Positions 1,746 through 35,799 of a DNA stretch of 64,000 nucleotides are shown in pieces. The DNA lies in assembly GCA_017532085.1 (NCBI GenBank), contig JAFXJT010000010.1, positions 7,057 to 71,056 on the forward strand. The letters are read 5' to 3'. Position numbers and translations under genes: made by a program. The notes below the pieces were generated by a model, which saw only the letters and a list, made by a program, of their open reading frames with translations, did not search any database and was not told the origin of the DNA. The first letter of the stretch is position 1. Each line of letters opens with the position of its first letter. The DNA comes from Oscillospiraceae bacterium (GTDB lineage Bacteria; Bacillota; Clostridia; Oscillospirales; Ruminococcaceae).

Positions 1746-4439
1746 ATGGCAATCCAGAATCAGATATCCCATACAGGCAGAACAAGACGTGCAGCCGGCG
1801 CACTTGCCATTTGTGCTGTCATGCTCGCTTGCATGAGCCGTGGATATGCTTTGCCGCCTGCCAGCGGTGCTTCGGCCGGTATTAAGGCGTTTCCCGGTGC
1901 TGTGGGCGGCGGTGCTTATGCCACCGGCGGCAGAGGCGGCGAGATCTATCATGTCACCAATCTCAATGACAGCGGGGAAGGCTCGTTCCGGGATGCTGTC
2001 AGCAAATCGGGACGCTTTGTCATTTTCGATGTGAGCGGTACCATCGAGCTGAAAAGCAATATCATTGTTCAGAGCAATGTGACCATCGCCGGTCAGACTG
2101 CTCCGGGCGGCAGCGGCATTACGCTCAAGAATTACAAGCTCGGCATGGGCGGCGATAATATCATCTGTCGGTTCATCAGCTCCCGTCCCGGTCCCTATGC
2201 CTCAACCACCAGCGGCAACGATGCCTGGGGCGGCGCAAAAGGCTCCAACTCCATCATCGATCACTGCTCTATGGGCTGGACCACCGATGAACAATGGGCG
2301 CTCTATTCCAACAATGAATATTACACAGTGCAGTATTCTGTGATCGGCCCTGCCGATTCCTGGGGCGGACACAGCAAAGGCATCCACGGCTTCGGCATCA
2401 TGATGGGCAGAGGCTACTGTACCTTCGATCATAACCTCATTGTACATAATGTTTCCCGTAATTTCCGCGGCAAGGTAGTAGGCACCTCTACTGCCGATTT
2501 CACCAATAATGTCATCTACAACTGGGCATATCAAACCGCTTATGGCACCATCGGCCATCTCAACTATGTCAACAATACCCTTAAGATGGGAAATGGCACC
2601 ACCGGCGGAAAGCACTATGTCTATGTAGACAGCAGTACCAATCCGCAAAATTTCTCGATCTACTGCGCCGGCAACCGGATGCTCAATCGGGATGGCTCTG
2701 TTTACGGTGATGTGACCTATAACAACTGGAACGGTATCTCCGTCAAGAATGGTCTGGGGATTACCAAGGATTCTGTCAAGAGCAACTCCGCATTCCAAAC
2801 CATTGTCAATAACGAAAATGTCTCCACCGCCATGCAATGCGAAAGCGCTGAGGCATCCTATGAGCATGTTCTCACCTTTGCAGGCAACGGCATCGCTTCC
2901 AATCTGCGTACTGCCATTGATCAGCAATCCGCAAACGAAGCCAGAACCGGTACCGGAAATATGAGCGGCAGTGCCGCCTATTCCGATGCAACCGCCGAGG
3001 AAAAAGCAAAGATCGACAGCTATAAAATCCAGTGCAGCACCAACTATACCTACCCTGCTCCCGTGCTGGAGAAAACCATCGTCGATACCGACAGCGACGG
3101 TATGCCCGATGCTTGGGAGACTGCACGCGGTCTCAATCCCAACGATCCTGTGGACTGCTATGGCGACTACTGCGGACAGGGTTATACCAATATCGAATAT
3201 TACTGCAACGATCTGACCATCAACGCATTCCCTCAGGGCGTTGTCACCCTTTCTCCTGAAATGGAACCGGTGGAAACCATCTCTGCATTCGAGACCATTG
3301 AGGCTGAGGCTTTCACCTCGCAAAACGGCGTGGAGACTGAAGAAAACGACAACGGCATCAGCAATGTGGGCTTCATCGAAAACGGAGATTCCATCATGTT
3401 CCGTGCCGTGAACTTCGAGGATGGCGCCGGCAGCTTCTATGCACAGGTTGCTTCTACCACTGACGGCGCTGCTATCGAGGTCTATGTAGGCTCCATGAAC
3501 AGCACGCCTGCGGCAATCTGTCCGGTGCCCAATACCGGTGACTGGCAGCAGTATACCGAGATCTCCTGCAACACCAAAAGCACCATTCGCGGCACACAGA
3601 ATGTCTATCTGAAATTTGTTGGCGGCGACAGCTATCTGCTGAACATCGACAGCTTTGTATTCGGCAGAGACCGTGTGCCCATCAGCGGTACTTGGATCAC
3701 CGATCTGCAGGTGCTGGATGAAGCGCATTATGATGCATGGGCTCTGGGACAGGATCTCAAAGACGGCGCTCCGCTGTTCGGTGACAGAACCGTATCCTAT
3801 ATCGGCGTGCCTTCCGCCTTGATCGGTGCAGAATACATCCTCACTGCCTGCGATTCCAAATTCACCAAAGCAGATCTTGCCTACTTCACTGCCGGCGACG
3901 ATCTCCTTGTCTATGTTGCCATGGATACCCGTGTGTCCCCGCTGCCGGCTTGGCTCTCCGATTGGGAGCCCACTGCTATGACCGTTGCCAATGACGGCGA
4001 TGTTCAATTCGCCCTTTATCAGAAGCAAGTCCCTGCCGGAGAAATCGTTTTGCTGGGACAGAACGGACAGGATGCCTACTGCGTCAACTATACGGTCATG
4101 GCAATCAAAGATCCCAACGCTGTGGAAACCACCACGACAACTACCACTACAACGACGACTACCACAACAACGACGACAACGACTACCACAACGACAACCT
4201 CTTCCATACAGCCGGAAACACCGCTCTATGGCGATATCAACTGCGACGGTATTGTCAAAATTGATGATGTGGTGCTGGGCAGCCGTCTGGTGGGTGAGGA
4301 TCAGACCATAACCATCTTACCACAGGGTATGATCAATGCCGATTGTGCATATGACGGTCAAATCAACGCTTTGGATACCATCAAGATCCTCAGTTTCCTT
4401 GCCGGTCTGACCGCCTTTGAGGAATTGGGACAACCATAA
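1746..4439 (+). CDS. secreted multidomain pectate lyase (PL1-like) with CBM modules, poly-Thr linker and C-terminal type I dockerin
   Basis: Signal peptide present. Catalytic-domain motifs seen: GGGAYATGGRGGEIYHVTNLNDSGEGSFRDAV, IIDHCSMGW and SRNFRGK. An Asp-rich Ca-binding repeat DTDSDGMPDAWE follows. Next comes a CBM6/35-like module (IEAEAF...GDWQQY...IDSFVFG) and a second beta-sandwich-like module. The C-terminus has 24 Thr and the dockerin YGDINCDGIVKIDD...INADCAYDGQINALD. SD GGGGAGG lies upstream. Confidence 0.9.
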   Translation: MAIQNQISHTGRTRRAAGALAICAVMLACMSRGYALPPASGASAGIKAFPGAVGGGAYATGGRGGEIYHVTNLNDSGEGSFRDAVSKSGRFVIFDVSGTIELKSNIIVQSNVTIAGQTAPGGSGITLKNYKLGMGGDNIICRFISSRPGPYASTTSGNDAWGGAKGSNSIIDHCSMGWTTDEQWALYSNNEYYTVQYSVIGPADSWGGHSKGIHGFGIMMGRGYCTFDHNLIVHNVSRNFRGKVVGTSTADFTNNVIYNWAYQTAYGTIGHLNYVNNTLKMGNGTTGGKHYVYVDSSTNPQNFSIYCAGNRMLNRDGSVYGDVTYNNWNGISVKNGLGITKDSVKSNSAFQTIVNNENVSTAMQCESAEASYEHVLTFAGNGIASNLRTAIDQQSANEARTGTGNMSGSAAYSDATAEEKAKIDSYKIQCSTNYTYPAPVLEKTIVDTDSDGMPDAWETARGLNPNDPVDCYGDYCGQGYTNIEYYCNDLTINAFPQGVVTLSPEMEPVETISAFETIEAEAFTSQNGVETEENDNGISNVGFIENGDSIMFRAVNFEDGAGSFYAQVASTTDGAAIEVYVGSMNSTPAAICPVPNTGDWQQYTEISCNTKSTIRGTQNVYLKFVGGDSYLLNIDSFVFGRDRVPISGTWITDLQVLDEAHYDAWALGQDLKDGAPLFGDRTVSYIGVPSALIGAEYILTACDSKFTKADLAYFTAGDDLLVYVAMDTRVSPLPAWLSDWEPTAMTVANDGDVQFALYQKQVPAGEIVLLGQNGQDAYCVNYTVMAIKDPNAVETTTTTTTTTTTTTTTTTTTTTTTTSSIQPETPLYGDINCDGIVKIDDVVLGSRLVGEDQTITILPQGMINADCAYDGQINALDTIKILSFLAGLTAFEELGQP
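4128..4199 (+). repeat. (ACN)24 low-complexity repeat encoding a poly-Thr linker
   Basis: 24 consecutive Thr codons (ACC/ACG/ACA/ACT) lie inside the pectate lyase gene. Confidence 0.95.
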
Positions 4440-9258: not shown

Positions 9259-11937
9259 ATGCGTGGTTTATCCTCAGAAGAGGCTGCTCGCAGACAACAA
9301 CAGGAGGGTGCCAATACGCTTGCCGAACCGCCTCGTTCGCATCCCATCCGCATTCTGCTGGCGCAGTTTCAAGATCTTATGGTACTGATTCTCATGGGTG
9401 CTGCCGGTATTTCTGCCTTTCTGGGAGAATATACCGATGCCGCTACCATCGGTATCATTGTAGTGCTCAATGCCATTCTTGGTTTTATTCAGGAATATCG
9501 CACCGAACAGACGCTCCTTGCTCTGCGGAATATGACCGCACCGACAGCAAAGGTCTATCGTGATGACAGCCCCGTCATTCTGCCTGCTGCCCAGCTGGTC
9601 ACTGAGGATCTGATTCTGCTGGAAGCCGGCGATCGTGTGCCTGCGGATGCTTGTATCCTTTCCTGCAGCAATTTGCAGGCAGAGGAATCCATTCTCACGG
9701 GAGAATCCTGCGCTGTGGAAAAATCCGCACACACCGAACAGGATGGCGCTGTCTCCAATGCCATCGGCAGGACAGATGTGCTCTATGCCGGTACCTCCGT
9801 CACCAGAGGCAGCGCCGAAGCCAAAATCATCGCCATCGGCAAACAAACGCAGATGGGACAAATCTCACAGCTGCTCTCGGAAATCGACAGCGGTCAGACC
9901 CCTTTGCAAAAACGATTGGATGAGCTTGGAAAAGTCGTTACCTTGCTGTGCGGAATTGTCTGCGTTATGGTCTTTCTGGCAGGTGTGCTCCGTGGTGAGC
10001 CGATTCCCGATATGCTTATGACCGGAATCACCATCGCCATTGCTGCCATCCCAGAAGGACTGCCTGCAACCGTTACCATTGCGCTGGCACTGGCTGTCCG
10101 CAGAATGCTCAAGCGCAATGCGCTGGTGAATCGACTGCATGCTGTGGAAACCTTAGGCTGTGCTTCCGTCATCTGCACCGATAAAACCGGTACCATTACC
10201 GAAAACAAAATGACTGTCTGTGCCTTAACTGCCGGTATGGAAGAATTGGCTCTCAGCGGAAACGGCTGGCAGAAATCCGGTACGCTGACCGATGCCCATG
10301 GCGCTGCCTGTAATCCTCACACAAAACCCGATCTGGCTGCGCTGCTGCGCTGTGCCGTATTATGCAATCATGCAAAGCTCAAGGGTACCCTGCAAAATAC
10401 CGCAAGACAGCGCGGCTCTCTGCAAGCCAAGGGCGAATGGGATACCGTCGGAGATCCCACCGAAATCGCATTGCTGGTTGCTGCCGCAAAATGCGGCTTT
10501 ACTGCCGATGGATTCTCTCGTTATCCTCTGGTGCATGAGCTGCCTTTTGAAAGCGAAACCCGTTCTATGACCGTATTTTGTGCGCAGCCCATGCAGGAGA
10601 TGCTCCTTGCCTGCCGCAAAGGTGCGGTGGATGCGATTCTGCCTCAATGCAGCTTCTATCGGGAACAGGGAAAAACGCTGCCTCTGACACCGCAGAAACG
10701 TGCCGCCATTCTGGCACAGGCTGAGGCGTATGCCGAACAGGCACTGCGGGTCCTCGCTTTTGCGGAAAAGGATTGCAAGGATCCCAATGCGCCGCTGCAA
10801 AGCATGGTCTTTCTCGGTCTGATGGCAATGATGGATCCTCCGAGAGCACAGGCGAAGGCTGCTGTTGCCGATTGCGTCCGTGCCGGCATTAAGGTGATGA
10901 TGCTGACAGGCGATCACGCAAAAACAGCGGCGGCTGTGGCAAAGCAAGCCGGCATCCCCAATGGACACAATGTACTGACCGGTGCCGAGCTGGATGCAAT
11001 GAGCGATACACAGCTCGCCGATTGCGTTGCGCAATACGGTGTCTTTGCCAGAGTCACGCCCTCCCATAAGCTGCGGCTGGTCAAAGTACTGCGCTCCAAA
11101 GGCAAAATCGTGACCATGACCGGCGACGGCGTGAATGATGCGCCTGCCGTGAAAGAGGCGGATATCGGTGTGGCAATGGGCAAAAACGGCACCGATGTAA
11201 CCCGTCAAGCTGCCGATGTGATCTTGCTGGATGATCGCTTCGATACCCTGGCTGCCGCCGTGGAGCAGGGCCGCACCGTATATGCCAATATCCGGAAATT
11301 TGTGCGCTATCTGCTTGCCTGCAATATCGGAGAAGTATTAACCATGTTTCTGGGGCTTGTCATGGGAATGCCCATGGTATTGCTGCCCACACAGATCCTG
11401 CTGGTCAATCTGATGACCGATGGTCTGCCCGCCATTGCTCTGGGTCTGGAACCGCCCTCGAAAGATATCATGCGAAAGCCGCCGAGAAATGCTTCTGAAA
11501 GCTTCTTTGCCCACGGACTGCTCTCCAAAATCATTTTCCGGGGCATCTTCATTGCTCTTTCCACACTGGGTGCCTTTACGACCATACTGCGTCTGACCGG
11601 TTCTGTGGAAACGGCACGCACAGGTGCTTTGGTGACATTGATCCTTTCTCAGCTCCTGCACGTATTTGAATGTAAAAAAGAAAATGGTACGCTGTTTACT
11701 GTGCCGTATTTTTCCAATGGAAAGCTGCTTTTGGCTGTGCTGGTCTCATTGGCTGTCACCGCTTCTGCGCTTTGGTGTGAACCGATCCGGCTGCTGTTCG
11801 GAACAACCGCTTTATATGGAAAGCCTCTGCTTTGTGCTGTGCTGTTCAGCTTTGCGGTGCCGCTGGCTTCGACGCTTCCGGTATTGCTTGGTGGATGGCA
11901 CCGCCATGACGCGGTCTCGGAATCAGTCCAAAGCTGA
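9259..11937 (+). CDS. calcium-translocating P-type ATPase (type IIA, YloB-like)
   Basis: Motifs seen: [43 protein letters not shown] and NIGEV. SD GAAGGGAG precedes ATG 9259. Confidence 0.93.
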
Positions 11938-12265
11938 TCTCCAAAGCATAGTCCACCTGTTTCATCGCTTCCTGCGGAATCTCACCCATGCGCTCCTTGA
12001 GCCGCTGTTTATCAATCGTGCGGATTTGCTCCAACAGAATAATACTGTCTTTGGAAAGACCACAGCTGGAGGCTGTCAACGAAATATGCGTTGGCAGCTT
12101 CGCTTTTTCTCTCTGGCTGGTGATGGCTGCTGCTATGACCGTGGGACTGTATCGGTTGCCAACATCATTTTGTATGATCAGAACCGGTCGGATGCCGCCT
12201 TGCTCTGATCCCACAACAGGACTTAAATCTGCATAATAAATCTCGCCTCTGCGGACTGTGAGCAT
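11846..12265 (-). CDS. mazF: type II toxin mRNA interferase MazF/EndoA, with no adjacent antitoxin gene
   Basis: [58 protein letters not shown]...[16 protein letters not shown] is almost colinear with B. subtilis EndoA. SD AAAGGAGTG precedes ATG 12265. The 3' end overlaps the ATPase gene by 92 nt. Confidence 0.9.
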
Positions 12266-12476: not shown

Positions 12477-12520
12477 AAACTTGCACGCAAACGTACAAGT
12501 TTTTGACGAAAAATCGCTGT
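12477..12520 (+). promoter_or_regulatory. operator/promoter element, site A: AAACTTGCACGCAAACGTACAAGTTTTT - N10 - CGCTGT
   Basis: A 10-4-10 inverted repeat AACTTGCACG-caaa-CGTACAAGTT sits 102 nt upstream of the terS ATG. A 27/28-identical copy with the same CGCTGT spacing lies upstream of the holin gene (site B). Confidence 0.6.
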
Positions 12521-12606
12521 ATGTGAACGCAGGTTACGCCCTCAAATATCCATCTGCGTTTTCATCCAATGCCCTCTCAAATCAAAAAGAAAGGTGGTTG
12601 ATACAG

Positions 12607-13146
12607 ATGAAGGAATCTACAGCCAATGCAGCTACAAAGCGACGCTTTTGCCGCTACTATCTGCTGCTTGCCAATGCTGCCGAGGCTGCCATCCGTGCAG
12701 GTGTGCCTCCTGATGAAGCTGAGGCGGAAGCGCTGGCGATTTTACAGTCGCCCTGCTATCGCAGTTATCTTTCCGAGCTTGCCGCACAGCCCCCTCTGCC
12801 CATGCAGACTATGGTGCTTGCCGGATTGACAAGACTCGCCTTCGGTTCTGCCAATGATGCAGCAAGACTCGTGTTCCATGATGATGAGCAGCTTTCGCCC
12901 GAAGCGCTGCGTTCTCTGGATCTGTTTCATGTCTCGGAACTGAAACGGGATAAAGGCGGCGGTGTGGAAATCAAACTGTTTGATCGGCAAAAAGCAATGG
13001 AAAAATTGCTGGAGTTCTCTCACACGGCGGATTCCTCCGCTGCCGCTTCGGCGCTGCTGGCTGCCTTGCGTACACCACAGGAGGTGAACGCTGATGACAG
13101 CATCGGACAAGATGCATCAGACCATGATGCAGCCCTTCTCCCCTAA
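12607..13146 (+). CDS. phage terminase small subunit
   Basis: The N-terminus ATKRRFCRYYLLLANAAEAAIRAGVPPDEAE is TerS HTH-like (compare FcqeYl..gNat.AairAGys). KLFDRQKAMEKLLEF is also present. SD AAAGGTGG is upstream, and the 3' end overlaps terL. Confidence 0.75.
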   Translation: MKESTANAATKRRFCRYYLLLANAAEAAIRAGVPPDEAEAEALAILQSPCYRSYLSELAAQPPLPMQTMVLAGLTRLAFGSANDAARLVFHDDEQLSPEALRSLDLFHVSELKRDKGGGVEIKLFDRQKAMEKLLEFSHTADSSAAASALLAALRTPQEVNADDSIGQDASDHDAALLP

Positions 13147-14377
13147 GCAGCAGACGGTTCTGCGATGGTGGCTTGATCCGGAAACAGCACAGTATGATGC
13201 GATTCTCTGTGACGGCGCCATCCGTTCCGGAAAAACAACCGCACTGGCTCTGGGCTTTGTCATCTGGAGTTCTGCCGTCTTTCATCAGCAGAGCTTTGCT
13301 TTGTGCGGCAAAACCATTACCTCTCTGCGCCGCAATCTGATTGCACCGTTGATCGGACAACTGAAGCTTTTGGGGTTTACCGTCACGGAACGGGTCAGCC
13401 GTTCCTATTTGGATATCAGTTTTCAAGGTCACTGCAATCGGTATTATTGCTTCGGCGGCAAGGATGAGGCTTCCGCTTCCCTCATTCAAGGCATTACCCT
13501 CGCCGGCGTTCTGATGGATGAGGTGGCTCTGATGCCCCGATCCTTTGTGGAGCAGGCATTGGCTCGCTGCTCTGTACCCGGCTCAAGGATCTGGTTTTCC
13601 TGCAATCCGGAGCGCCCTTCCCATTGGTTCTATCAGGAATGGGTGCTGCAATGCAAACAGAAAAATGTGCTCTATCTTCATTTCACCATGCAGGATAATG
13701 CTTCACTGACACCTGCAATCCGCAGACGCTATGAACGAATGTACAGCGGTGCTTTCTATGAACGCTATATCAACGGAAGCTGGGTTGCCGCACAGGGGCT
13801 GGTGTATCCTATGTTCTCACAAGCACGCCATGTGGGCACGCCGCCCGAACCCTGCAGCCGCTATGTCATCTCCTGTGATTACGGCACCATGAACCCCTGT
13901 TCCTTTGGATTGTGGGGCTTTTGCAGGGATCGCTGGTATCGACTTGCGGAAAGCTACTATAATGCCAGAGAAACCGGTCTGCCGCGTACCGATGAGGAAC
14001 ACTATCAGACCTTGTGCCGGCTGGCAGAGCACTATCCCATTGAACAGATCGTCATTGATCCTTCGGCGGCAAGCCTGATTGCCTGTATCCGCCGCCACGG
14101 CAGATTCTGCGTGATCCCCGCACAAAACGATGTGCGCAGCGGCATTCAGCGTGTGGCAGATGCCCTGCGTGAGGACAAGCTGTGCTTTGCACCCTCCTGC
14201 AAGGATACCCTCAGAGAATTCTCTCTCTATGCTTGGGATGAACACGCTGCCAAGGATGCTCCCGTGAAGGAAAATGATCACGCAATGGATGACATCCGCT
14301 ATTTCGTCAGCACGGTATTGTGCCAATCGGATAAGCCCGCTTTCTTTGCGGCTTCGCTTGCAAGAGCACAAGGGTAA
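13094..14377 (+). CDS. phage terminase large subunit (PBSX-type)
   Basis: Walker A CDGAIRSGKTT, Walker B GVLMDEV, and nuclease-domain motifs SCDYG and NDHAMDDIRY. SD GGAGGTGA lies 6 nt before ATG 13094. Confidence 0.9.
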   Translation: MTASDKMHQTMMQPFSPKQQTVLRWWLDPETAQYDAILCDGAIRSGKTTALALGFVIWSSAVFHQQSFALCGKTITSLRRNLIAPLIGQLKLLGFTVTERVSRSYLDISFQGHCNRYYCFGGKDEASASLIQGITLAGVLMDEVALMPRSFVEQALARCSVPGSRIWFSCNPERPSHWFYQEWVLQCKQKNVLYLHFTMQDNASLTPAIRRRYERMYSGAFYERYINGSWVAAQGLVYPMFSQARHVGTPPEPCSRYVISCDYGTMNPCSFGLWGFCRDRWYRLAESYYNARETGLPRTDEEHYQTLCRLAEHYPIEQIVIDPSAASLIACIRRHGRFCVIPAQNDVRSGIQRVADALREDKLCFAPSCKDTLREFSLYAWDEHAAKDAPVKENDHAMDDIRYFVSTVLCQSDKPAFFAASLARAQG

Positions 14378-14423
14378 TCTGCTGAAATTTCCCCGTACTG
14401 TTATCAGAAAGGAGGTTTTTTCT

Positions 14424-15641
14424 CTGGGATTTTTTTCGTTTTCCAAGCTGCGGCGCAGCAAAAGTAATGGGCTTGCCTCCTCCTCGGTAATCTCCACCAC
14501 GGCAATCCGAGGCAGAGCTGCCGATTCGCTGCTGCCTGCCACGCACTTTGCGGCACCGGCTGCCGCAGAATGGCAGCTTTATGAAGGTCTGCGCTATGCT
14601 GTTCCTGTCATTGATGCTGCATTTCGTAAGATTGTAAGGCTCAGCGGCGGCTTTCATTTTACGGTTGACAATGATGCCGCACAATCGTTTTTGGATCAAT
14701 TCTGCGAAACCGTACCGGTTAATGCATCGAGCTGCTCCATGCAGAGCTTTGCCGATCAGATGCTGGACTGCCTGCTGCTCTATGGCAATGCTGTGGGTGA
14801 AATGCTCCTTGCCGATGAGGATGGATCGCTCAGCGGTCTGCGCATCCTCCATCCGGCCGCGGTTATCATGGAACAGACTGCACCCAATCAATGTCGCTTT
14901 TCCATGCGCACATCCGACAGCGATAAGCCCATTCCTGTCCGCCGACCCGAACAGCTTCTCTTTACGGCGCTGAATCCTCCGGCAGGCGGTCTGTATGGTG
15001 TATCGGTTCTGCGCGGCATCCCTGCTCTCAGCCGTATTTTGCTGCGCATTTACGAATGCATCGGGCAGAATTACGATCGGGCAGGCAATGTGCGCTATGC
15101 CGTGACGTATCATCCCGATGGTGATCCCGCCTCGCTTGCCTTCGCCAAAGATCACGCCGAGGAAATCGCTGCTGCATGGCAGGATGGCATCCGTGCCGCA
15201 CAACACGGCGAAATCCGAGATTTCATCTCTGTGGGCAATGTGGAAATCCATGCCATCGGTGCGGATCACACCATGCCGAACACCGAAATCCCCGTAAGAC
15301 AGCTGCTGGAACAGATTGTCTCTAAGCTTTCCATCCCACCGTTCCTGCTGGGATTTTCTTGGTCTACCACAGAACGAATGTCCTCTCAGCAAGCCGATAT
15401 TCTTACCTCGGAGCTGGAATATTTCCGCAGACTCCTCACGCCTTTGCTGCTGAAAATCGCAGAAGCAGCACTGCGCAGTCAGGGCTTTGCCGAACATCCC
15501 GTCATCTGCTGGGATCACATCAATCTGCAGGACGAAACCGAACTTGCGGAAGCAAGACTCAAAAATGCACAGGCGCATGAAATCGAACTGCGCAATCAAA
15601 TCACCGAAACCGAAATGAGAAAGGATTGTTCAAATGTATAA
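14424..15641 (+). CDS. phage portal protein (start uncertain: CTG 14424 or ATG 14274)
   Basis: About 405 aa directly after terL. The portal-like N-terminus (M/L)GFFSFSKLRRSKSNG follows SD AAAGGAGG by 8 nt, but the codon there is CTG. The only in-frame ATGs (14274 and 14289) overlap terL by about 90-104 nt and lack an SD. Confidence 0.75.
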   Translation: MGFFSFSKLRRSKSNGLASSSVISTTAIRGRAADSLLPATHFAAPAAAEWQLYEGLRYAVPVIDAAFRKIVRLSGGFHFTVDNDAAQSFLDQFCETVPVNASSCSMQSFADQMLDCLLLYGNAVGEMLLADEDGSLSGLRILHPAAVIMEQTAPNQCRFSMRTSDSDKPIPVRRPEQLLFTALNPPAGGLYGVSVLRGIPALSRILLRIYECIGQNYDRAGNVRYAVTYHPDGDPASLAFAKDHAEEIAAAWQDGIRAAQHGEIRDFISVGNVEIHAIGADHTMPNTEIPVRQLLEQIVSKLSIPPFLLGFSWSTTERMSSQQADILTSELEYFRRLLTPLLLKIAEAALRSQGFAEHPVICWDHINLQDETELAEARLKNAQAHEIELRNQITETEMRKDCSNV

Positions 15642-16602
15642 TTCCGTAAAACTGGAAAAGGGTATGTATCACCTCGCCAACACCTCCTTCCTGCAGGCTT
15701 TGGAGCAGGCAGATCCCTCCGAGCAGTATGCAGGTACGCCGCTGGGCACTCTGGATGCCTTTGAGCGTCAGCTCAAGCGTTTTGATATCCATATCAGCGG
15801 TCCCGAGTGCGACTGCGTCGAAAAGTTCTTTACCACCACCGAAAGCGCTGTTCTGTTCCCTGAATTTGTACGCCGTGCCGTGAAACAGGGCATGGAGGAG
15901 TCCATTCTCTCGGAGCTGACTGCTGCAACCACGGCTGTCAACGGCACCTCTTACAAGGGCTTTGCGATTGATGAAACCGATGGTGCTTACTCCGCCACCG
16001 CTGCCGAAGGCACCGATATGAAGGTAACTGCCATCACAGAAGCGTCCTCTGCTGTGGCACTGGCCAAATATGGCAGAGTGATTTCCGCTTCCTATGAAAT
16101 CGTGCGCAGACAGCGTCTTGACAGCTTTGCCGTCGCATTGCGTGCCATCGGCAGAAAACTTGCCGGAGCCATCGTCGCAACGGCGCTGACCCAGCTCAAA
16201 GACTCTGTTACGGCAATCTCTTTGTCCGGCAGCGATCTTTCCTATGCGGATCTTGCCAATCTCTATGGTCAGTTCACCGACTATAACATGACAACTCTGG
16301 TGGCTTCTCCCAAGAATGTGGCGCTGATCTTAGCCATGGAGCAGATGTCCGATCGCTGTGCCGATGAAAATGGTCATGTCTATCTGCCCTTTGGTGCAAA
16401 GCTGCTCAAGGATGCTTCTTTGGAGGATACCGTTATGATCGGTCTGTGCAAGGATTATGCGCTGGAATGCATTACCGGCTCTGAGCTGCTGCTGGAAACC
16501 GATCAGCTCATCAATTGTCAGCTCGATCGCATTGCCGTTTCTGTCCGCATCGGCTTCCTGCCATTGATGGATGGCGCTACCGCTGTCTTAGAATGGAGCT
16601 GA
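15634..16602 (+). CDS. putative HK97-fold major capsid protein (no delta domain)
   Basis: 322 aa. VALAKYGRVISASYEIVRRQRLDSFAVALRAIGRKLAGAI resembles the conserved MCP core. The position in the head module fits, and the start overlaps the portal stop by 8 nt. Confidence 0.65.
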   Translation: MYNSVKLEKGMYHLANTSFLQALEQADPSEQYAGTPLGTLDAFERQLKRFDIHISGPECDCVEKFFTTTESAVLFPEFVRRAVKQGMEESILSELTAATTAVNGTSYKGFAIDETDGAYSATAAEGTDMKVTAITEASSAVALAKYGRVISASYEIVRRQRLDSFAVALRAIGRKLAGAIVATALTQLKDSVTAISLSGSDLSYADLANLYGQFTDYNMTTLVASPKNVALILAMEQMSDRCADENGHVYLPFGAKLLKDASLEDTVMIGLCKDYALECITGSELLLETDQLINCQLDRIAVSVRIGFLPLMDGATAVLEWS

Positions 16603-16637
16603 TGTTCACCCACCTCAACGAAAGGAGTATCCACACA

Positions 16638-17543
16638 ATGGGACATATGACCGATGAGGCATTGCTGGAAAAACTCAATGCCTTCACCAGACGTGCACAT
16701 TCGCTGGATGAGGTCTATCTCTTTGATCTCATCCTCTGCGATAACGAGATCGACCGTGACGGCGACTGCTTTTCCAAAGAAGCGCTGCTTTCTCTGCAGG
16801 AACGCTTCGTGGGCGTAACGGGAATCTTTGATCACAATCCTCGCTGCGGCAATCAGAATGCACGCATCTTCCATACCGAGCTGATGGAGGACAATACCAG
16901 AAAAACTGCATATGGTCAGCCCTATCTCTATCTGAAAGCCAATGCCTATATGATTCGCACAGAAAGCAATCAGGATCTCATCCGCGAAATCGAAGGCGGC
17001 ATCAAAAAAGAGGTCAGCATTTCCTGTGCTGCCTCTCAACAGATCTGCTCGATCTGCGGTGCCAACCGTCTGCAGAAAAACTGCGGCCATATCAAAGGAA
17101 GATCGTATGGCGGTGCACTGTGCTATCGGGTGCTGGATGGTATCACCGATGCCTATGAATGGAGCTTCGTTGCGGTGCCTGCTCAGAAAAATGCAGGTGT
17201 CACCAAAACAATGGGCGGCAAGCTTCTCGATGCGGAACGGCAGCAGCTTTATGATGCCTTGGAACAGGCCAATGCTTCTCTGGATGTGCTCACCGAAGCT
17301 CTGCGAAGGGAGGTTGTAAAGCTCTGCTATAAAGAGGGTGACAGCATCTGCGCCAGAATGCTTGCCGAAAGCACCATACATATGGATGCCGATGCTCTGC
17401 TCTCTCTGAAGAAATCGCTGGAGCTTTTAAAGCCTGCGGCACAGCCTCCCATTGATCACAAAGCTTCGTCCCATGCCGATCCTGCATCCAAAGGGATCCG
17501 TGCCTTCTCCATGCAGGGAAAGCGAGGCGAGGCGCACCGATGA
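16638..17543 (+). CDS. putative prohead protease / scaffold (S78 / XkdF-like)
   Basis: NEIDRDGDCFSKEALLSLQERFVGVTGIFDHNP...KKEVSISCAA resembles the prohead protease core. The C-terminal third is Ala/Leu/Glu-rich and helical (scaffold-like). SD GAAAGGAG is upstream. Confidence 0.6.
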   Translation: MGHMTDEALLEKLNAFTRRAHSLDEVYLFDLILCDNEIDRDGDCFSKEALLSLQERFVGVTGIFDHNPRCGNQNARIFHTELMEDNTRKTAYGQPYLYLKANAYMIRTESNQDLIREIEGGIKKEVSISCAASQQICSICGANRLQKNCGHIKGRSYGGALCYRVLDGITDAYEWSFVAVPAQKNAGVTKTMGGKLLDAERQQLYDALEQANASLDVLTEALRREVVKLCYKEGDSICARMLAESTIHMDADALLSLKKSLELLKPAAQPPIDHKASSHADPASKGIRAFSMQGKRGEAHR

Positions 17544-17896
17544 ATGTGGAACAATGTGCCAAGCTCTTTGCTTTGTTCGCTGCGCTTGAGGATATTACCC
17601 CCTATCAGCCTTTGCTGGATGCTGCTGTCATAGAATGCAGACAGCAGCTGAAAGAGGGCGCTGATGAATCCGATATCCGTTTGTGCTATTACTGTGCTGC
17701 CATTGCCAATCTGCGCTATACCCAGATGATCGCTGCACGCAGTACGCTTTCCCATACATATGCCGGTACCCTTGCAAAATCCCATGATGAAACCATCCCC
17801 CATCGCTTTGCAGAACGTCTGTGGCAGGAATACCGAGCGCTGGCAAAGGATCTGCTCCGGAATGAGGATGTTCTCTTTTCTGCGATGGTCGGCTGA
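17540..17896 (+). CDS. putative head-tail adaptor/connector protein
   Basis: A 118-aa helical protein immediately after the head genes. Its start overlaps the upstream stop as ATGA. The function is inferred from size and position only. Confidence 0.45.
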   Translation: MNVEQCAKLFALFAALEDITPYQPLLDAAVIECRQQLKEGADESDIRLCYYCAAIANLRYTQMIAARSTLSHTYAGTLAKSHDETIPHRFAERLWQEYRALAKDLLRNEDVLFSAMVG

Positions 17897-17913
17897 AATC
17901 AGGAGGTTCTACG

Positions 17914-18354
17914 ATGGCATATCTCTCTACACTCACCAGTTCCATCATCCGTGCCATGCAGGATATCGGTATGCGCGCCGAACGGGAATATCACAATAAG
18001 CCTGTGGATCACTATGGCAGCACTACCTTCGCTACCGTTGCTCTGGAACGGCTGATCTATGGAAAACCCCTTCCCCATTCAGAGGGCACGGTCTTTCCTC
18101 TGACCGCTACCATTCGGGTCAGACTGTATTGTCCCACAGAGTATCATACCGGTTTGCTGGAAACACAATGCGATCTGTATCTGATTCCCGCATTGCTCAA
18201 TGCGCAGCTTGATCTGCGAAAAATCATTACCGAACCGCCCTTTTTCGATGCAAAAATCGGCATGCTCTGTATGCCGGTGCATATTACGGCGGATACCCTT
18301 GCAACCCGCACATGGATCGAAACCGATACAGAAACGGAGGCTGATCAGCCATGA
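17914..18354 (+). CDS. hypothetical phage-like protein (possible neck/stopper-terminator type)
   Basis: 146 aa. SD CAGGAGG is upstream, and the stop overlaps the next start as ATGA. The function is not recognised. Confidence 0.55.
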   Translation: MAYLSTLTSSIIRAMQDIGMRAEREYHNKPVDHYGSTTFATVALERLIYGKPLPHSEGTVFPLTATIRVRLYCPTEYHTGLLETQCDLYLIPALLNAQLDLRKIITEPPFFDAKIGMLCMPVHITADTLATRTWIETDTETEADQP

Positions 18355-18824
18355 GCTATTATCTCTATGATCTGGATACCTCGCCTACGGTACGCACGGT
18401 GATTCTGGACGATATGACACTCCTTGTGGAAGGCTTTTCTTTGGAAGAAGAACGTCCTTATGATCTGATGCTGCTCATGGATGGCAGCTATCATCAGGAG
18501 GCTATGAACAAAAAGCCTTGTCTGCTCACCTTAACCGGCAGAATTGCTCCGTCGGAGGAAATGGATCTTTTGGAATTCTTCCGCCGTGCCATCGGGCAAA
18601 AAACCGCATTTTCTTTTTCGTTCGGTGAAATGCTCTTTGCCGATATGCGGATCTGCCGGTATCGGCTGAAGGCAGAGGAGGGCGCTCGGATTGCAGCGTA
18701 TTCCTTGACGCTTGTGGGCAGCACCCATCAGCCCTATACCGACGACGAAGTGGAGATTCTGCCGTTTTCTGTACGGGATCCCGAACAGACGATGACAGAC
18801 GGAAAGGAAGGGCAGAGCATTTGA
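18351..18824 (+). CDS. hypothetical phage-like protein (possible distal-tail/Dit-like)
   Basis: 157 aa. SD GGAGG is upstream, and the gene is translationally coupled on both sides. The function is not recognised. Confidence 0.55.
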   Translation: MSYYLYDLDTSPTVRTVILDDMTLLVEGFSLEEERPYDLMLLMDGSYHQEAMNKKPCLLTLTGRIAPSEEMDLLEFFRRAIGQKTAFSFSFGEMLFADMRICRYRLKAEEGARIAAYSLTLVGSTHQPYTDDEVEILPFSVRDPEQTMTDGKEGQSI

Positions 18825-19771
18825 ACGCTATTTTGCAGCTCGATGTGATACAGACCTATGAAGTGATCGAAGTACAGTGTCTGCGCTTTACCCTCACACG
18901 GGATCACTATCTCCCCTATGCAGAGCTGAAGGCGGAATTCATCAGCGAGGCCTTCGGTCATGGTTTTCCCCGTCATGCAAAGTTCTATCTCGACGATATG
19001 CTGCTCTTTGAGGGTCTGGCGGATCATGTGAAGATCGTCAAGAAGAATGGCCGAAAGCTTGTTGCCATCTCAGCCAAAAGCTATTCCGCCGCTTTGCTGG
19101 ATAATCAGCCCACACCCGGTATTTATCCCAATGCAACGCTTTCTTCGCTGATGTCTCTATATCATCTCCCGTATATCACCTATCAGCAGAATGTGAATCA
19201 AAGCAATTACGTCTATGTGAAGGATAATACCTCCATGTGGGAAATGCTCATTCACTATACCTATAAGCTCAACGGCGGCTTCCCCTATATTGAAGGGAAC
19301 AATCATGTCAGGGTCACACGGCACAGTCAGCCCAGACTGTTTGAAATTCAGCCGGAAGAGATCATCAGCTGCGGCACACAGCATGATAACTCCCGTGTGA
19401 TCAGCCGTATCGAAATGGCAGATGCTGCAGGCAATTACGGTACCTTTTCCATGAACAATCCCTATGCAGAGGAACGCAATATCGTGCGTATCAAGCAGAT
19501 TGCACTGGATAAGCAGTATCTTTCCCATCCCGAATATGCGCTGACGCATCGCATCTATCGCAGTATGCAGAAGATTCGCACAACCTATGCAGAGTATCTC
19601 GGCTATAAGGGAGAGGATTTGCAGGATCATGTCTGTTTTATCGGATTCTCCACCGGTTATGCCGATCGCATCGAAATCCACGGAGAGCAAGGTCGGCTGT
19701 CTACAAAGGTGTATCATTATCATGATCCGTTCTGCAATTGCATTACTACACCGCCGGACAGCGATCGCTGA
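18821..19771 (+). CDS. hypothetical phage-like protein (weak resemblance to XkdQ / gpD-type tail hub)
   Basis: 316 aa. TTG start 18821 has SD GGAAAGGAAGGG 7 nt upstream and overlaps the previous stop. The pattern F.EG.ADHVKIVKKNGRKLVAISAKSYSAALLDN...NATLSSLM recalls hub/late-control-D-type proteins, but this is not verified. Confidence 0.5.
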   Translation: MNAILQLDVIQTYEVIEVQCLRFTLTRDHYLPYAELKAEFISEAFGHGFPRHAKFYLDDMLLFEGLADHVKIVKKNGRKLVAISAKSYSAALLDNQPTPGIYPNATLSSLMSLYHLPYITYQQNVNQSNYVYVKDNTSMWEMLIHYTYKLNGGFPYIEGNNHVRVTRHSQPRLFEIQPEEIISCGTQHDNSRVISRIEMADAAGNYGTFSMNNPYAEERNIVRIKQIALDKQYLSHPEYALTHRIYRSMQKIRTTYAEYLGYKGEDLQDHVCFIGFSTGYADRIEIHGEQGRLSTKVYHYHDPFCNCITTPPDSDR

Positions 19772-19825
19772 TCGCTTTGGAATTTGAGATTCTTCATAGG
19801 AATTCATCAAAATCCTTGACAAGAC

Positions 19826-19868
19826 GGCTGCAATATGGTAAAATATATCCATATTGCAGCCGTTTTTT
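19826..19868 (+). terminator. strong intrinsic terminator closing the phage-like head cluster
   Basis: A perfect 13-bp stem GGCTGCAATATGG / CCATATTGCAGCC with a 10-nt loop, followed by GTTTTTT. A TTGACA-17-TAAAAT promoter for the next gene overlaps it. Confidence 0.85.
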
Positions 19869-19918
19869 GGTCTGTGATAGATCAGATTGTACACAATTTG
19901 TTGAGGAGGAGTTTTATC

Positions 19919-28408: not shown

Positions 28409-28518
28409 CTCATCCGTACAGCTCTTTTGGCAAGAGCCATCCTCCCCTTCCAAATCTTGTCTCAGTATAGCATATCCCCACTGCTTTGTCCAGTCATTCC
28501 TGTGCTGATTTTCCGCAA

Positions 28519-28564
28519 CAAAAATCCCCTCGGATTTCTGTGTTTGCAGCACAGATCCGAGAGG
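28519..28564 (-). terminator. intrinsic terminator ending the holin-lysin unit
   Basis: On the minus strand, CCTCTCGGATCTGTG...CACAGAAATCCGAGGGG is followed by ATTTTTGTTG. Confidence 0.65.
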
Positions 28565-28575
28565 ATTCTGAGGCT

Positions 28576-29442
28576 TTATGCCTGACTAAGAGATGCGCGG
28601 GTCTTGGGACCGCAGACGCCATCCACCTCCAACCCGCAATCGGTCTGATAGCAGCGTACTGCCCGTTCGGTATCGGGACCGAAGCTGCCATCAATACCCG
28701 CTGTTCCGCAAGAATAGCCCTTTTGTATCAGATGCCATTGCACCCAGCGGACATCATCGCCCTTGCTGCCACGGCGCTGCGGCTTTGTGGGCATCCCATA
28801 CGGACAGCCCTCCGGTGGATTGGCAGATACGGTTCCGAATCCGTTTTTCTGCTTTTTCCGCATTATGGCAGGATAGGCAAGATAGGCATAATTCAGATCC
28901 ACCTTGCCGGAAATCCCGTTGACACTGCCAGTATGGGAATATTGCCACATACCATAGGGATACCGATAGGAAGTCTTGCTGACACCGGTATGTGCCACCC
29001 AGACGGCATAGCGGCGCAGAATGCGTTCAGAGAGTTTCTGCTCCAGGAAATACTTATAGGAATAAATCCCTGCAAAATAGCCTGCTGCCTCCAACCTTTG
29101 ACAAAACGCCTCCACAATGGCATCCACCTGTTCTCTGCGCAGCATACGCTGTATCGTATCCTCAATATCAAAATAAATGGGATAGGCAAAGGTTTTGCCT
29201 TCCAGAAGCTGCAGCACTGCCTGTGCCTCTCTGTCGGCAGCCTGAGGCGTTGTGGCATAGCTGTAACAATAGGCACCCACCGGAATGCCTGCTGCGGATG
29301 CTCCTTGATAATTCTCACCGAAGCGCAGATCGGCACCGTTGCAATATACCCGCAGCACAGCAAATTCCACACCGCTTTCCGCCACCTGCTTCCAGTTGAT
29401 TCTGCCTTGATGCGCAGAAACATCAATTCCTTTGATCGCCAT
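28576..29442 (-). CDS. GH25 muramidase endolysin with C-terminal PG_binding_1 domain
   Basis: MAIKGIDVSAHQGRINWKQV...GAYCYSYA...YFDIED is a GH25 core. The C-terminus GDDVRWVQWHLIQKGY...IDGSFGPDTERAVRCYQ...VDGVCGPKT is peptidoglycan-binding. SD GGAAGGAG is upstream. Confidence 0.88.
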   Translation of the reverse strand: MAIKGIDVSAHQGRINWKQVAESGVEFAVLRVYCNGADLRFGENYQGASAAGIPVGAYCYSYATTPQAADREAQAVLQLLEGKTFAYPIYFDIEDTIQRMLRREQVDAIVEAFCQRLEAAGYFAGIYSYKYFLEQKLSERILRRYAVWVAHTGVSKTSYRYPYGMWQYSHTGSVNGISGKVDLNYAYLAYPAIMRKKQKNGFGTVSANPPEGCPYGMPTKPQRRGSKGDDVRWVQWHLIQKGYSCGTAGIDGSFGPDTERAVRCYQTDCGLEVDGVCGPKTRASLSQA

Positions 29443-29446
29443 GCTG

Positions 29447-29644
29447 TTACGCTCCTTCCTCACGATTCATGATCGCCGCAATACCGGCTGCCACGGCTGC
29501 CACACAGAATCCGATCACTGCCGATCGGGTACTGAAATCCGCAGCAGCAACATTGACCACCACATAGCCTGCGGCTGCCTGCAAAAATGTACGCAGTGTG
29601 CGCCGCATACATTCCGATTTGCAAAATGTTTTCAAGCTGTTCAT
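29447..29644 (-). CDS. phage holin (r1t-holin-like)
   Basis: 65 aa: MNSLKTFCKSECMRRTLRTFLQAAAGYVVVNV...VIGFCVAAVAAGIAAIMN. It lies immediately upstream of the endolysin, separated by 4 nt. SD AAAGGAGA is upstream. Confidence 0.7.
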   Translation of the reverse strand: MNSLKTFCKSECMRRTLRTFLQAAAGYVVVNVAAADFSTRSAVIGFCVAAVAAGIAAIMNREEGA

Positions 29645-29740: not shown

Positions 29741-29786
29741 ACAGCGGAAAATGCGGAAAAACTTGTACGTTTCCGTGCAAGTTTTT
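29741..29786 (-). promoter_or_regulatory. operator/promoter element, site B: AAACTTGCACGGAAACGTACAAGTTTTT - N10 - CGCTGT (read on the minus strand)
   Basis: 27/28 identical to site A at 12477-12504. The CGCTGT box lies 10 nt downstream as at site A, and the holin ATG lies 112 nt downstream. The orientation relative to the operon matches site A. Confidence 0.6.
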
Positions 29787-32499: not shown

Positions 32500-32896
32500 T
32501 TTTCCGATCTTGTCATAAATGCGGTCAAATAAAAATCGCCCTGAACACAGAAAACACCATATGCTCTCTATGCTCAGGACGAACGGTTTCCATCAGGGCA
32601 ATGGGAATCACATCCGTGGTACCACCTGAATTCGGCAAAGCGTTTCAAACGCTCACAGCCGCACTCTTTGCTCGGACAGCGAGGCTGCAGCTGCACCCGA
32701 CTGACCTTCTCTGTAACGGGAGAACCCGTCAGACACTACACACAACCGATTGTGAAAGATCCTGACACAATCTGCTGCTTTGCATCCGCAGCTCGAAACG
32801 CGACTTCGGAGCAACCATCGAAGCATTTTCACCAACCATGCTCTCTCTGAACGACGGGGAACGCTCTTACTCCTCGTTTGTCATCGCTTTTCTATT
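32500..32896 (-). promoter_or_regulatory. T-box riboswitch leader, Val specifier (GUC)
   Basis: Read on the minus strand, Stem I carries the AGAGAG and GGUUGGUGAAA elements. The specifier loop reads CCGAAGUCGCG, with the codon at 32802-32804. The T-box core reads UUCAGGUGGUACCACGG (32614-32632). A terminator GCCCTGA...TCAGGGCGATTTTTATTT precedes the valS SD. Confidence 0.85.
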
Positions 32897-35525: not shown

Positions 35526-35799
35526 GCAACCCCCAAAAAACAATCAAGCCATACAAAAAACACAGCGTTCGGATACAGCAGTGCCATATCCTCTGATGAC
35601 TAGTATACTGAAAAATTATCTGCATTGCAATGAACAATCCTCTATTTTTTCTGCATAATAATCCGATGATGCCGGAATCACGGCAGGAAAGCATGAAAAA
35701 AACCATGAAAAATCCCGCTGCAATTTGTGCGAATTTACAAAAATTCGGGAAAGTGCGGAGGAAGCCTTGACAAGGAGAAGAAAACATGGTATTGTTATA

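Follow-up and report, generated by a model that had tools for sequence, protein, structure and literature searches.

A conserved head, packaging and tail-tip gene cluster in Ruminococcus-type chromosomes as a candidate gene transfer agent-like element

Nine co-oriented, intact open reading frames (ORFs) are located at 12607-19771 (+) of the window, the whole 64-kb stretch of DNA that was analyzed. They form a 7.2-kb cluster for a small and a large terminase (TerS and a PBSX-family TerL), a portal protein, an HK97-type capsid protein, a putative XkdF-like protease/scaffold protein and four small proteins. Six junctions are overlaps, of 53, 32, 8, 4, 4 and 4 nt, and at the other two the ORFs lie 35 and 17 nt apart; this bears out the mostly overlapping junctions described in an earlier note on this DNA. 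An intrinsic terminator at 19821..19872 (+), which has an 18-bp stem ahead of a T run (repeat I20; -30.8 kcal/mol, z = -8.65), closes the operon, in agreement with the intact run of nine head and packaging genes and strong terminator that the note had described. The flanks were also found again to consist of host core genes (Ca-ATPase, PemK/MazF, MIP channel, aldo-keto reductase, GNAT and gltX). As claimed earlier, no integrase, repressor or replication gene turned up in the rest of the 64-kb window, nor did any further tail gene; AlpA, primase and att were likewise absent from it.

Profile searches gave family matches for the first five genes. TerS (179 aa; 12607..13146, +) matches phrog_51 and, over profile positions 6-127 of 141, PF03592 (E 8.6e-15), and still contains the N-terminal region of Terminase_2. 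TerL (427 aa; 13094..14377, +) belongs to the PBSX family (TIGR01547, E 2.1e-51; 175.6 bits, where the cutoff is 105), and its translation shows Walker A (GAIRSGKT), Walker B (LMDE) and nuclease Asp motifs. The portal protein (431 aa; 14346..15641, +) matches phrog_30703 (E 1.6e-118), and its score against PF04860 (31.1 bits) is under the Pfam gathering cutoff of 39.1 bits; it has more than 5500 homologous clusters, some of them on Mb-size contigs. The HK97-type major capsid protein (322 aa; 15634..16602, +) matches PF25209 (E 2.3e-13) and phrog_3922 (E 4.3e-61), with no match in NCBIfam. It is followed by P5 (301 aa; 16638..17543, +), so that the order is capsid then protease and not the reverse. 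P5 belongs to a family of unknown function (phrog_16951, E 3.8e-88); two of 40 homologs match the XkdF protease family PF14550 (E 4.6e-5), DRD, H66 and S127 are invariant, and the helical C-terminal part varies. To judge from these features, P5 is probably an XkdF-like prohead serine protease with a scaffold-like C-terminal part. Together, the five genes encode a complete head-and-packaging set.

P6 (118 aa; 17540..17896, +) had been called an adaptor; it gave no family match in any profile search run, and the label of putative head-tail adaptor comes from its position. Its length and position are kept in nearly all loci (dN/dS 0.04-0.18). P7 (146 aa; 17914..18354, +), without a significant match in the searches, stands where a neck or terminator protein would be placed, and this position is also conserved among loci (dN/dS 0.14-0.27). 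The predicted structure of P8 (157 aa; 18351..18824, +; pLDDT 72.6) matches baseplate tube initiators, diffocin, the 80alpha and monocin tubes, Hcp, and the RcGTA chains 6tba and 6toa (E 3e-4 to 1e-2, probability 1.0). At the level of the modeled fold, P8 is a tail-tube-fold protein, either a tube initiator or a Dit-like ring. The model of P9 (316 aa; 18821..19771, +; pLDDT 69, pTM 0.70) matches 3d37, 3cdd and 1wru (E 1e-15 to 2e-14, TM 0.6-0.68), and its homologs include a "43 kDa tail protein," "protein D" and XkdQ-domain proteins; its predicted structure identifies P9 as a baseplate hub of the Mu gp44/XkdQ/gp27/VgrG-N type. Two former unknowns are thus tail parts by their models, indicating that a stub tail tip is present. 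This corrects the earlier statement that there is no tail tube: genes for tail parts are present in the cluster. Beyond the tip, tape measure, tube polymer, sheath and fibre are absent from the cluster, and a search for fibre or receptor-binding genes in the window and in 160 related loci was negative. P8 and P9 evolve faster than the head genes, as expected of parts that meet the surface of a recipient cell.

A 26-bp palindrome, AAACTTGCACG-CAAA-CGTACAAGTTT (11-4-11), is located at 12477..12502 (+), ~105 nt upstream of TerS, and is a putative operator/activator site of the head operon. Its second copy (29759..29784, -) lies ~115 nt upstream of a holin-like gene and is followed by TGTGTATGAGGG on the - strand. 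The two copies constitute repeat I1 (28 nt, 96% complementary); two matches were observed in the window, with 0 expected. A -10-like box read off the sequence, TGTATGTGAACG (12518..12529, +), begins 15 nt past the palindrome and probably belongs to a promoter; in related loci it reads TATAGTGAAAGG in the same arrangement. Palindrome-like sites (at least 18/22) occur upstream of TerS in 27 of 72 species loci, against 0 of 1440 shuffles. The palindrome is also found upstream of gyrBA and of phage/mobile-element replication genes, indicating that it is not specific to the cluster. In one related species, the same promoter block stands before TerS and before the gene for a 610-aa beta-helix protein. 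A metagenome motif scan revealed no tube, sheath or tape-measure genes among the motif-adjacent families. The lysis cassette is ~10 kb away from the head cluster. Its putative holin (65 aa; 29450..29644, -), named for its position just upstream of the lysin, has two hydrophobic segments, a charged C-terminus and no Pfam match. The endolysin (288 aa; 28576..29442, -) combines a GH25 muramidase (PF01183, E 6.5e-29) with PG_binding_1 (PF01471, E 2.9e-17), and a terminator hairpin lies 3' of its gene (28518..28572, -; -29.7 kcal/mol, z = -6.0). A separate lysis cassette marked by the same 28-nt motif, as the earlier note had reported, is therefore confirmed.

The distribution of the cluster was examined in other genomes. 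TerS through P9 are colinear in 79 of 81 loci; in 68 species loci, this unit measures 6.6-7.7 kb, with a median of 7.0 kb. In ~80 fetched species loci, the nine-gene unit occurs without tail-module, lysogeny or replication genes. Host flanks are also seen at other loci. The portal gene is carried by at least 575 GTDB species genomes, and the carriers are Ruminococcus-type gut and rumen species (Ruminococcus/Oscillospiraceae). The only relatives in the phage collection are five unannotated faecal contigs, of which the one that was examined is bacterial DNA with the same cluster, and a single annotated phage, of Microcystis, at 28% identity. Purifying selection acts on each of the nine genes (dN/dS 0.02-0.29), the dS of the cluster equals that of the syntenic host flanks in five species pairs, and the architecture is kept across species with dS up to saturation. 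The cluster is one conserved ~7-kb unit fixed in the chromosome of many species, and selection maintains it at the pace of the adjoining housekeeping genes. Purifying selection, together with dS equal to that of the host flanks, indicates vertical inheritance rather than a decaying prophage or a satellite. With the ~80 loci that lack a tail module, these data contradict a prophage that is decaying or was recently truncated; the synteny and dN/dS comparison proposed earlier thus agrees with the domesticated element suggested at that time.

We propose, with a probability of about 0.6, that the locus is a domesticated, vertically inherited, phage-derived element of the gene transfer agent (GTA, "viriform") kind. 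A dimeric regulator at the palindrome, centered near -40 of the -10-like box, would switch on the head and lysis operons in a subpopulation of cells. Proheads would form on the portal and be matured by P5, and TerS and TerL would package into them, by the headful mechanism, a few kb, most likely of host DNA because no replication or excision function is present. The portal would then be closed by P6 and P7, P8 and P9 would form the stub tail, and the particle would be released by the holin and endolysin; fibre or spike proteins, if any, would be encoded away from the cluster. Particle production and DNA content are thus predictions. The TerS of RcGTA, like that of FpGTA, is reported to have no evident DNA-binding domain, whereas the TerS of this cluster keeps the N-terminal Terminase_2 region, so that packaging could start at specific sites; this would count against a GTA that packages host DNA. 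Further points against the proposal are that P6 and P7 have no assignable fold, that the P8 ring and P9 hub would have to dock on a neck without a tape measure, that the window and the 160 related loci yielded no fibre or receptor-binding gene, and that the palindrome also stands before genes outside this element.

The same genes could instead belong to a domesticated PBSX-like particle that serves some end other than gene transfer: part of the population would undergo programmed lysis and release capsids or stub-tailed particles, for instance to kill, to supply eDNA or to act as decoys, and the packaged DNA would be an undelivered by-product. The PBSX-family TerL, XkdF-like protease and XkdQ-like hub are consistent with this, as are the coupling to a lysis cassette and the lack of a fibre or receptor-binding protein in the cluster; the authors who described FpGTA raise the same caveat, that its particles may function in something other than gene transfer (PMC12946183). 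We consider this unlikely, since no tailocin-type killing device can be made from cluster genes that include no sheath, tube or tape measure, and since the faster evolution of P8 and P9 suggests contact with a recipient. More doubtful still is a scattered but essentially complete defective phage with a normal tail, of which the cluster would be the head-and-hub module and whose tube, tape-measure and fibre genes would lie elsewhere under the same promoter. GTA genes are often split, as in RcGTA and in FpGTA with its operons I and II; the lysis cassette here is already at a separate locus, a beta-helix protein shares the promoter in one related species, and inspection covered ~20 kb per genome. 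However, the tape measure of known long-tailed phages lies between the tube and hub genes, and all loci inspected have the hub gene immediately after the tube-fold gene, without one; the families found next to the motif in metagenomes included no tube, sheath or tape-measure gene.

A capsid-forming satellite (cf-PICI-like) or other helper-dependent element, which packages itself and takes tails or fibres from a helper phage, is improbable, although the cluster is compact, was flagged by virus predictors, consists of head, packaging and connector genes, and possibly keeps a DNA-binding domain in TerS. An integrase and Mob_Pre are found directly upstream on one IMG/VR contig, but this island, which also contains MmeI and HEPN genes, appears to be a separate insertion. 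The window and most other loci contain no integrase, AlpA, primase/replication gene or att, the positions are syntenic with flank-level dS in the five species pairs, and the borrowing of helper tails suggested earlier is further disfavored by the cluster's own tube-fold ring and hub, which cf-PICIs lack. Finally, an inert prophage remnant, intact by chance, would explain a location among core genes with most phage modules missing, but is very improbable given the low dN/dS of all nine genes, an architecture that outlasts dS saturation, and a conserved promoter motif.

Among known systems, cf-PICIs resemble the cluster in their compact TerS-TerL-portal-protease-capsid-connector set without tail tube or fibres. 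They are mobile and self-packaging, with integrase, AlpA, primase/replication gene and att sites, whereas none of these features was found in the cluster, which is vertically inherited and encodes both a hub and a tube-fold protein. PBSX, a defective prophage of Bacillus subtilis, shares the PBSX-family TerL (TIGR01547), the XkdF-like protease, the XkdQ-like hub, a Firmicutes host, a chromosomal location and coupling to lysis. However, PBSX is ~28 kb long, with sheath, tube, tape measure, baseplate, fibres and the regulators Xre and Xpf, none of which is in the cluster, and occurs only in a narrow group of Bacillus strains, while the cluster occurs across hundreds of species. RcGTA, too, is a head-tail cluster that has been domesticated, is passed on vertically and is kept by purifying selection, with lysis genes at another locus, host-level regulation, an expected small capsid, and a tube-fold protein and hub, the former represented by the two chains that P8 matches. 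It belongs to an unrelated lineage in another phylum (Alphaproteobacteria), and has a tube protein, tail chaperones, tape measure, distal tail protein and a large hub/megatron; in the cluster, the hub comes right after a single tube-fold protein, and a tape measure is absent.

Another close system is FpGTA of Faecalibacterium prausnitzii, reported together with GTA-like packaging of 4.6-8.9 kb DNA in Ruminococcaceae, including 4.6 kb in Ruminococcus_C callidus (PMC12946183, Nat Commun 2026); the earlier view that nothing similar had been described for Ruminococcus-like Clostridia is thus out of date. FpGTA occurs in the same bacterial family (broad sense), is near-ubiquitous within its host genus, and has a chromosomal TerS-TerL-portal-scaffold-capsid operon with hypothetical proteins and lysis genes at a separate locus. 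Neither has a long tail, to judge by the genes of the cluster and by FpGTA capsids, which appear tail-less or podovirus-like. By its description, however, FpGTA is a different lineage. The annotation of its capsid protein is N4-gp56 family (PMC12946183), in contrast to PF25209 in the cluster, where the capsid protein goes with a TerL and protease of PBSX type. Operon I of FpGTA has ten ORFs in 10.5 kb, against nine in 7.2 kb here, and lies 125 kb from operon II; its TerS is reported to lack the DNA-binding domain; and its baseplate, fibre and receptor-binding genes accompany the lysis genes (PMC12946183), whereas in the present DNA the head operon includes the hub and the lysis cassette is holin and lysin only. 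In Ruminococcus and R. callidus, that study assigned no gene cluster to the packaging. The cluster may be the packager of the 4.6-kb fragments of R. callidus, a circumstantial link in that no fetched locus is labeled R. callidus, and is a plausible candidate for the machinery behind the GTA-like packaging of host DNA reported in the same bacterial family.

The earlier note had described a compact run of nine intact phage head genes, and translation of the window bore this out. Positions 12607-19771 (+) hold nine uninterrupted ORFs, all in one orientation, whose products of 179, 427, 431, 322, 301, 118, 146, 157, and 316 aa agree with independent gene calls on identical metagenome contigs. Five of them have family support: the small terminase TerS (PF03592, E 8.6e-15), the large terminase TerL (TIGR01547 'PBSX family', E 2.1e-51, 175.6 bits against a curated cutoff of 105), the portal (phrog_30703, E 1.6e-118), the major capsid protein MCP (PF25209, and phrog_3922 with E 4e-61; no NCBIfam match at E up to 0.1), and P5 (phrog_16951, E 4e-88, a family with no known function). 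The genes are packed into 7.2 kb with six overlapping junctions (53, 32, 8, 4, 4, and 4 nt) and two short gaps, and a terminator with an 18-bp stem closes the operon (-30.8 kcal/mol, z = -8.7). The cluster is flanked by host genes for a Ca-ATPase, an orphan PemK/MazF, a MIP channel, an aldo-keto reductase, a GNAT protein, and gltX. The rest of the 64-kb window consists of housekeeping or carbohydrate-degradation genes and lacks any gene for an integrase, a repressor, replication, or more tail parts; direct repeats do not bracket the cluster either.

Some features of the surroundings were also recorded. The orphan PemK/MazF-family toxin gene (11846-12265, -) is divergent from TerS and has no upstream antitoxin ORF. 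It adjoins the cluster in at least 10 other related loci (L006, L007, L017, L018, L020, L021, L027, L028, L087, and L089), across which it is 77-92% identical, a higher conservation than that of the cluster proteins. At 55320-56957 (-), two adjacent ORFs share one sodium:solute symporter, matching Pfam SSF positions 1-182 and 209-406; the split reflects a frameshift, a pseudogene, or an assembly error. A dockerin and CBM77 pectate lyase and a CBM6 protein (33135-35543, -, and 1746-4439, +) indicate that the host is a cellulosome-type plant-fibre degrader. The window comes from a metagenome-assembled genome of an uncultured, Oscillospiraceae/Ruminococcus-like bacterium (locus tags IKM30_). The sole Rfam match in the window and TerS leader was a T-box leader elsewhere (RF00230, 99 bits; 32591-32893, -), 5' of valS (29858-32482, -).

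P6 to P9 could not be named by any sequence method. PHROG and Pfam scans of 39 homologues of each returned nothing significant, nor did sequence and profile searches of P5, P6, P7, and P9 against PDB sequences. P7 and P8 were unrelated by hhalign, and a match of P7 to lambda gpU at E 1.5 was counted as no evidence. Usable models of P8 and P9 came from structure prediction that drew on homologue alignments. The P9 model (pLDDT 69, pTM 0.70) matches baseplate hubs along its whole length: the '43 kDa tail proteins' of N. meningitidis and MuSo2, Mu gp44, T4 gp27, VgrG, and the 80alpha, diffocin, and pyocin R2 hubs, among others (E 1e-15 to 1e-8, TM 0.5-0.68). In BFVD, it matches 'protein D', 'gpP', and XkdQ-domain proteins. 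The P8 model (pLDDT 72.6) has a tail-tube fold, with matches to tube initiators of baseplates, to the diffocin, 80alpha, and monocin tube proteins, and to Hcp and RcGTA chains (E-values 3e-4 to 1e-2, probability 1.0). At the level of fold, the claim that no tail tube is encoded therefore fails, while the stated absence of tape measure, sheath, tube polymer, and fibre genes holds. Only four small ORFs lie 3' of the protease gene, none of tape-measure length, and P8 directly precedes P9. The description 'tail-less' is thus correct as to tube polymer and tape measure but not as to the tail tip, and is better worded as a predicted stub tail tip (P8 tube fold, P9 hub) without tube or tape measure. 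Such a stub, a tube-fold ring plus hub with no tape measure, poses structural questions of its own.

Upstream of these genes, P5 may be a protease-scaffold fusion. Two of its 40 homologues match the XkdF prohead-protease family PF14550 (E 4.6e-5), and in the family alignment a DRD motif, H66, and S127 are invariant, with a variable helical tail after them. From position alone, the helical P6, directly 3' of the protease, is a putative adaptor and P7 a putative neck protein.

A search with the portal revealed that the cluster is widely distributed. More than 5500 homologous 90%-identity clusters were found, many on contigs 0.1-2.8 Mb long; when one genome per GTDB species was scanned, at least 575 genomes had a portal relative. 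Among the matches listed, all named carriers are Ruminococcus, Oscillospiraceae, and allies, including the cultured R. flavefaciens FD-1, Porcipelethomonas ammoniilytica, and Hominimerdicola aceti. Of the 81 loci (80 of them fetched), 79 are colinear in the order TerS-TerL-portal-MCP-P5-P6-P7-P8-P9. In the fetched loci, product sizes are near-constant and the TerS-to-P9 span is 6.6-7.7 kb (median 7.0 kb). Some lineages have portal-P5-MCP instead of portal-MCP-P5 (L001, L072, L108-L118), and the MCP-P5 pair is relocated behind P9 in two IMG/VR contigs (L091, L092). The genes 5' of TerS and 3' of P9 are host genes that are common to close species and different in distant ones. In another IMG/VR contig (L101, 915-7592), an island with a tyrosine integrase, Mob_Pre, an MmeI-type restriction-modification enzyme, and a HEPN protein lies directly 5' of TerS; this island is probably an independent insertion beside the cluster, an integrative mobilisable or defence element.

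Public virus records contain the cluster as well. In the phage collection, the portal matches five unannotated 'Bacteriophage sp.' contigs in GenBank from human faecal samples (MT835508.1, which is locus L001, MT835952, MT835769, MT836604, and MT838993) and one annotated phage, Microcystis phage MACPNOA1, at just 28% identity. The longest faecal record, MT835508, which was the one examined, is a bacterial chromosomal contig with the cluster between ABC transporters and oleate hydratase, and was rejected as a real phage; the record stems either from calls by virus predictors or from host DNA in particle preparations. IMG/VR holds 233 contigs, most of them 3-14 kb cluster fragments with host flanks. 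The cluster thus accounts for the fragments of about 7 kb that virus predictors and virome databases have repeatedly reported as 'phage' from these hosts. It also accounts for the name 'serine/threonine protein phosphatase' that NCBI gives to many portal homologues (P0035, P0037, P0074, P0095, P0118), which looks like a propagated misannotation.

A set of phage head genes in a chromosome could be the remnant of a decaying or recently truncated prophage, or a mobile satellite that forms its own capsids. Both alternatives were weighed by synteny and by Nei-Gojobori estimates of dN/dS for pairs of closely related species, the examination that the earlier note had proposed. Besides the kept gene order, dN/dS is 0.02-0.29 for all nine genes at dS 0.1-0.9, indicating purifying selection. 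Five species pairs have syntenic host flanks, and in these pairs flank and cluster genes cannot be told apart by dS or dN/dS. Low dN/dS together with a dS equal to that of the host flanks indicates vertical inheritance under purifying selection. This signature excludes both recent truncation and decay of a prophage; the ORFs are also all intact and the architecture conserved, which argues against a remnant. It argues strongly against a mobile satellite, and this reading, which the earlier note had raised, is further disfavoured by the lack of an integrase or replication gene and by the cluster's own hub. The domestication proposed in the same note is well supported, and its observation was largely right overall. 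Conservation is lowest in P7-P9: across loci, P9 has about 30% identity to that of the window against 55-60% for TerL and portal, and in one species pair the tail-tip region has 62-67% identity against 92-97% for the other genes. This divergence is expected of parts touching the target cell.

The head operon and a distant lysis cassette carry the same palindrome. One copy of this 26-bp element (consensus AAAsTTGyACG-N4-CGTrCAAsTTT) lies at 12477-12502, 105 nt 5' of TerS; the other, in reverse complement, lies at 29759-29784, 115 nt 5' of the lysis cassette on the minus strand. Two matches were thus found in the window, compared with none expected. The cassette, which lies between two hairpins and has its own terminator, is limited to a 65-aa holin-like gene (29450-29644, -) and an endolysin with GH25 and PG_binding_1 domains (28576-29442, -). 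Of 72 species loci, 27 have a site scoring at least 18/22 5' of TerS, and none of 1440 shuffles does; changes in one half-site are mirrored in the other arm. A -10-like box (TATAGTGAAAGG type) follows the palindrome by 13-15 nt, a spacing that places its centre near -40, which may fit an operator overlapping the -35 region or a class-II activator site. As RNA the element folds weakly (-9.5 to -11.3 kcal/mol), so it was rejected as a terminator or attenuator; neither it nor the TerS leader matches an Rfam family. The promoter has no evident resemblance to the sporulation sigma consensus, and that reading was also rejected.

In a metagenome scan, about 25 of 120 palindrome matches precede TerS. 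Other genes preceded by it in metagenome contigs (L169-L288, L294) include lysins and the replisome organiser, AAA_25, VapE, and primase genes of phages or mobile elements; it also precedes gyrB-gyrA in 16 contigs of one species and the replication module in one 45-kb phage contig. No recA, lexA, or uvr gene was found among the palindrome-neighbouring genes of the scan, and thus the element is not a canonical LexA/SOS box. Since it stands 5' of gyrBA, phage replication genes, and TerS, it is not private to the head cluster, and it appears to be where a host-level regulator common to resident phages, the head cluster, and gyrase acts. A control element common to the head operon and lysis cassette poses regulatory questions. 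The palindrome also led to a 610-aa protein (L215, 3450-5282, -; also L169, L176, L195, L202, and L277) with an N-terminal domain, a coiled coil, and two right-handed beta-helix regions, which resembles a tailspike. Its promoter block (palindrome, upstream flank, and -10-like box) is that of the same species' TerS operon (L192), making the protein a candidate fibre or spike of the particle; tblastn found no homologue in the window or in 160 related loci.

Gene transfer agents (GTAs) and other viriforms package near-random host DNA in pieces too small for the encoding genes and are under host regulatory control. By the general definition, they are also fixed in the chromosome, vertically inherited, and under purifying selection, and lack genes for replication, integration or excision, and lysogeny control. 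The present cluster has syntenic flanks in five species pairs, occurs in at least 575 genomes, and is under purifying selection in all nine genes; none of the excluded functions is encoded in the 64-kb window, and the other loci are host-flanked. Particle formation, DNA content, and transfer are what we infer from these genes. In the human gut and rumen, bacteria of the Ruminococcus type are keystone degraders of fibre. Ruminococcaceae and Oscillospiraceae show the most prominent GTA-like encapsidation of host DNA, with packaging genes named for Faecalibacterium only; in Ruminococcus_C callidus, 'very short' 4.6-kb packaging was observed and no gene cluster assigned (PMC12946183, Nat Commun 2026). 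The cluster described here, at 7.2 kb, is longer than those 4.6-kb pieces. We tentatively propose, with a probability of roughly 40%, that the nine-gene unit is an ancient GTA of the Ruminococcus lineage with an undescribed architecture, a small capsid whose tube-less tail consists only of a tube-initiator ring plus a Mu gp44-type hub. It would underlie the packaging in R. callidus, and a host regulator acting at the palindrome would co-switch the lysis cassette and also control gyrBA and the early promoters of resident phages. Conserved and selected in hundreds of Ruminococcus-lineage species, the cluster is a concrete candidate for the family's host-DNA packaging, and the cultured carriers make it a testable one for the unexplained GTA-like activity in Ruminococcus.

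The GTA of Faecalibacterium, FpGTA, has an operon I of 10.5 kb with ten ORFs, an operon II of 5.5 kb with baseplate, fibre, receptor-binding, and lysis genes (holin, endolysin), and capsids of about 40 nm that appear tail-less and contain 8.4-8.9 kb of DNA (PMC12946183). In contrast, the cluster described here has nine ORFs in 7.2 kb, its hub gene lies in the head operon, and the separate cassette holds the holin-like gene and GH25 lysin only. Compared by family annotation, the FpGTA capsid protein (RCH50849.1) is of the N4-gp56 family, whereas the window capsid matches PF25209. The different capsid family and the PBSX-type gene set indicate, by annotation, a lineage separate from FpGTA rather than an orthologue. 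We found no other description of such a cluster in the library of papers searched.

In RcGTA, the alphaproteobacterial type, a tail tube, chaperones, and a tape measure lie between the neck and distal tail or hub genes; the present cluster has no tube polymer or tape measure there. PBSX shares the large terminase family (TIGR01547). It has a contractile tail (sheath XkdK, tube XkdM, tape measure XkdO, baseplate, and fibres) and Xre/Xpf regulators, whereas no contractile tail genes or Xre/Xpf regulators were found in the cluster or window. Capsid-forming satellites (cf-PICIs) carry an integrase, AlpA, a primase or replication gene, and att repeats, and move between strains; the present cluster has no integrase, AlpA, or primase/replication gene, and differs further in its vertical inheritance and its own hub. 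As far as its genes indicate, the cluster presumably works like a GTA or a PBSX-type domesticated particle.
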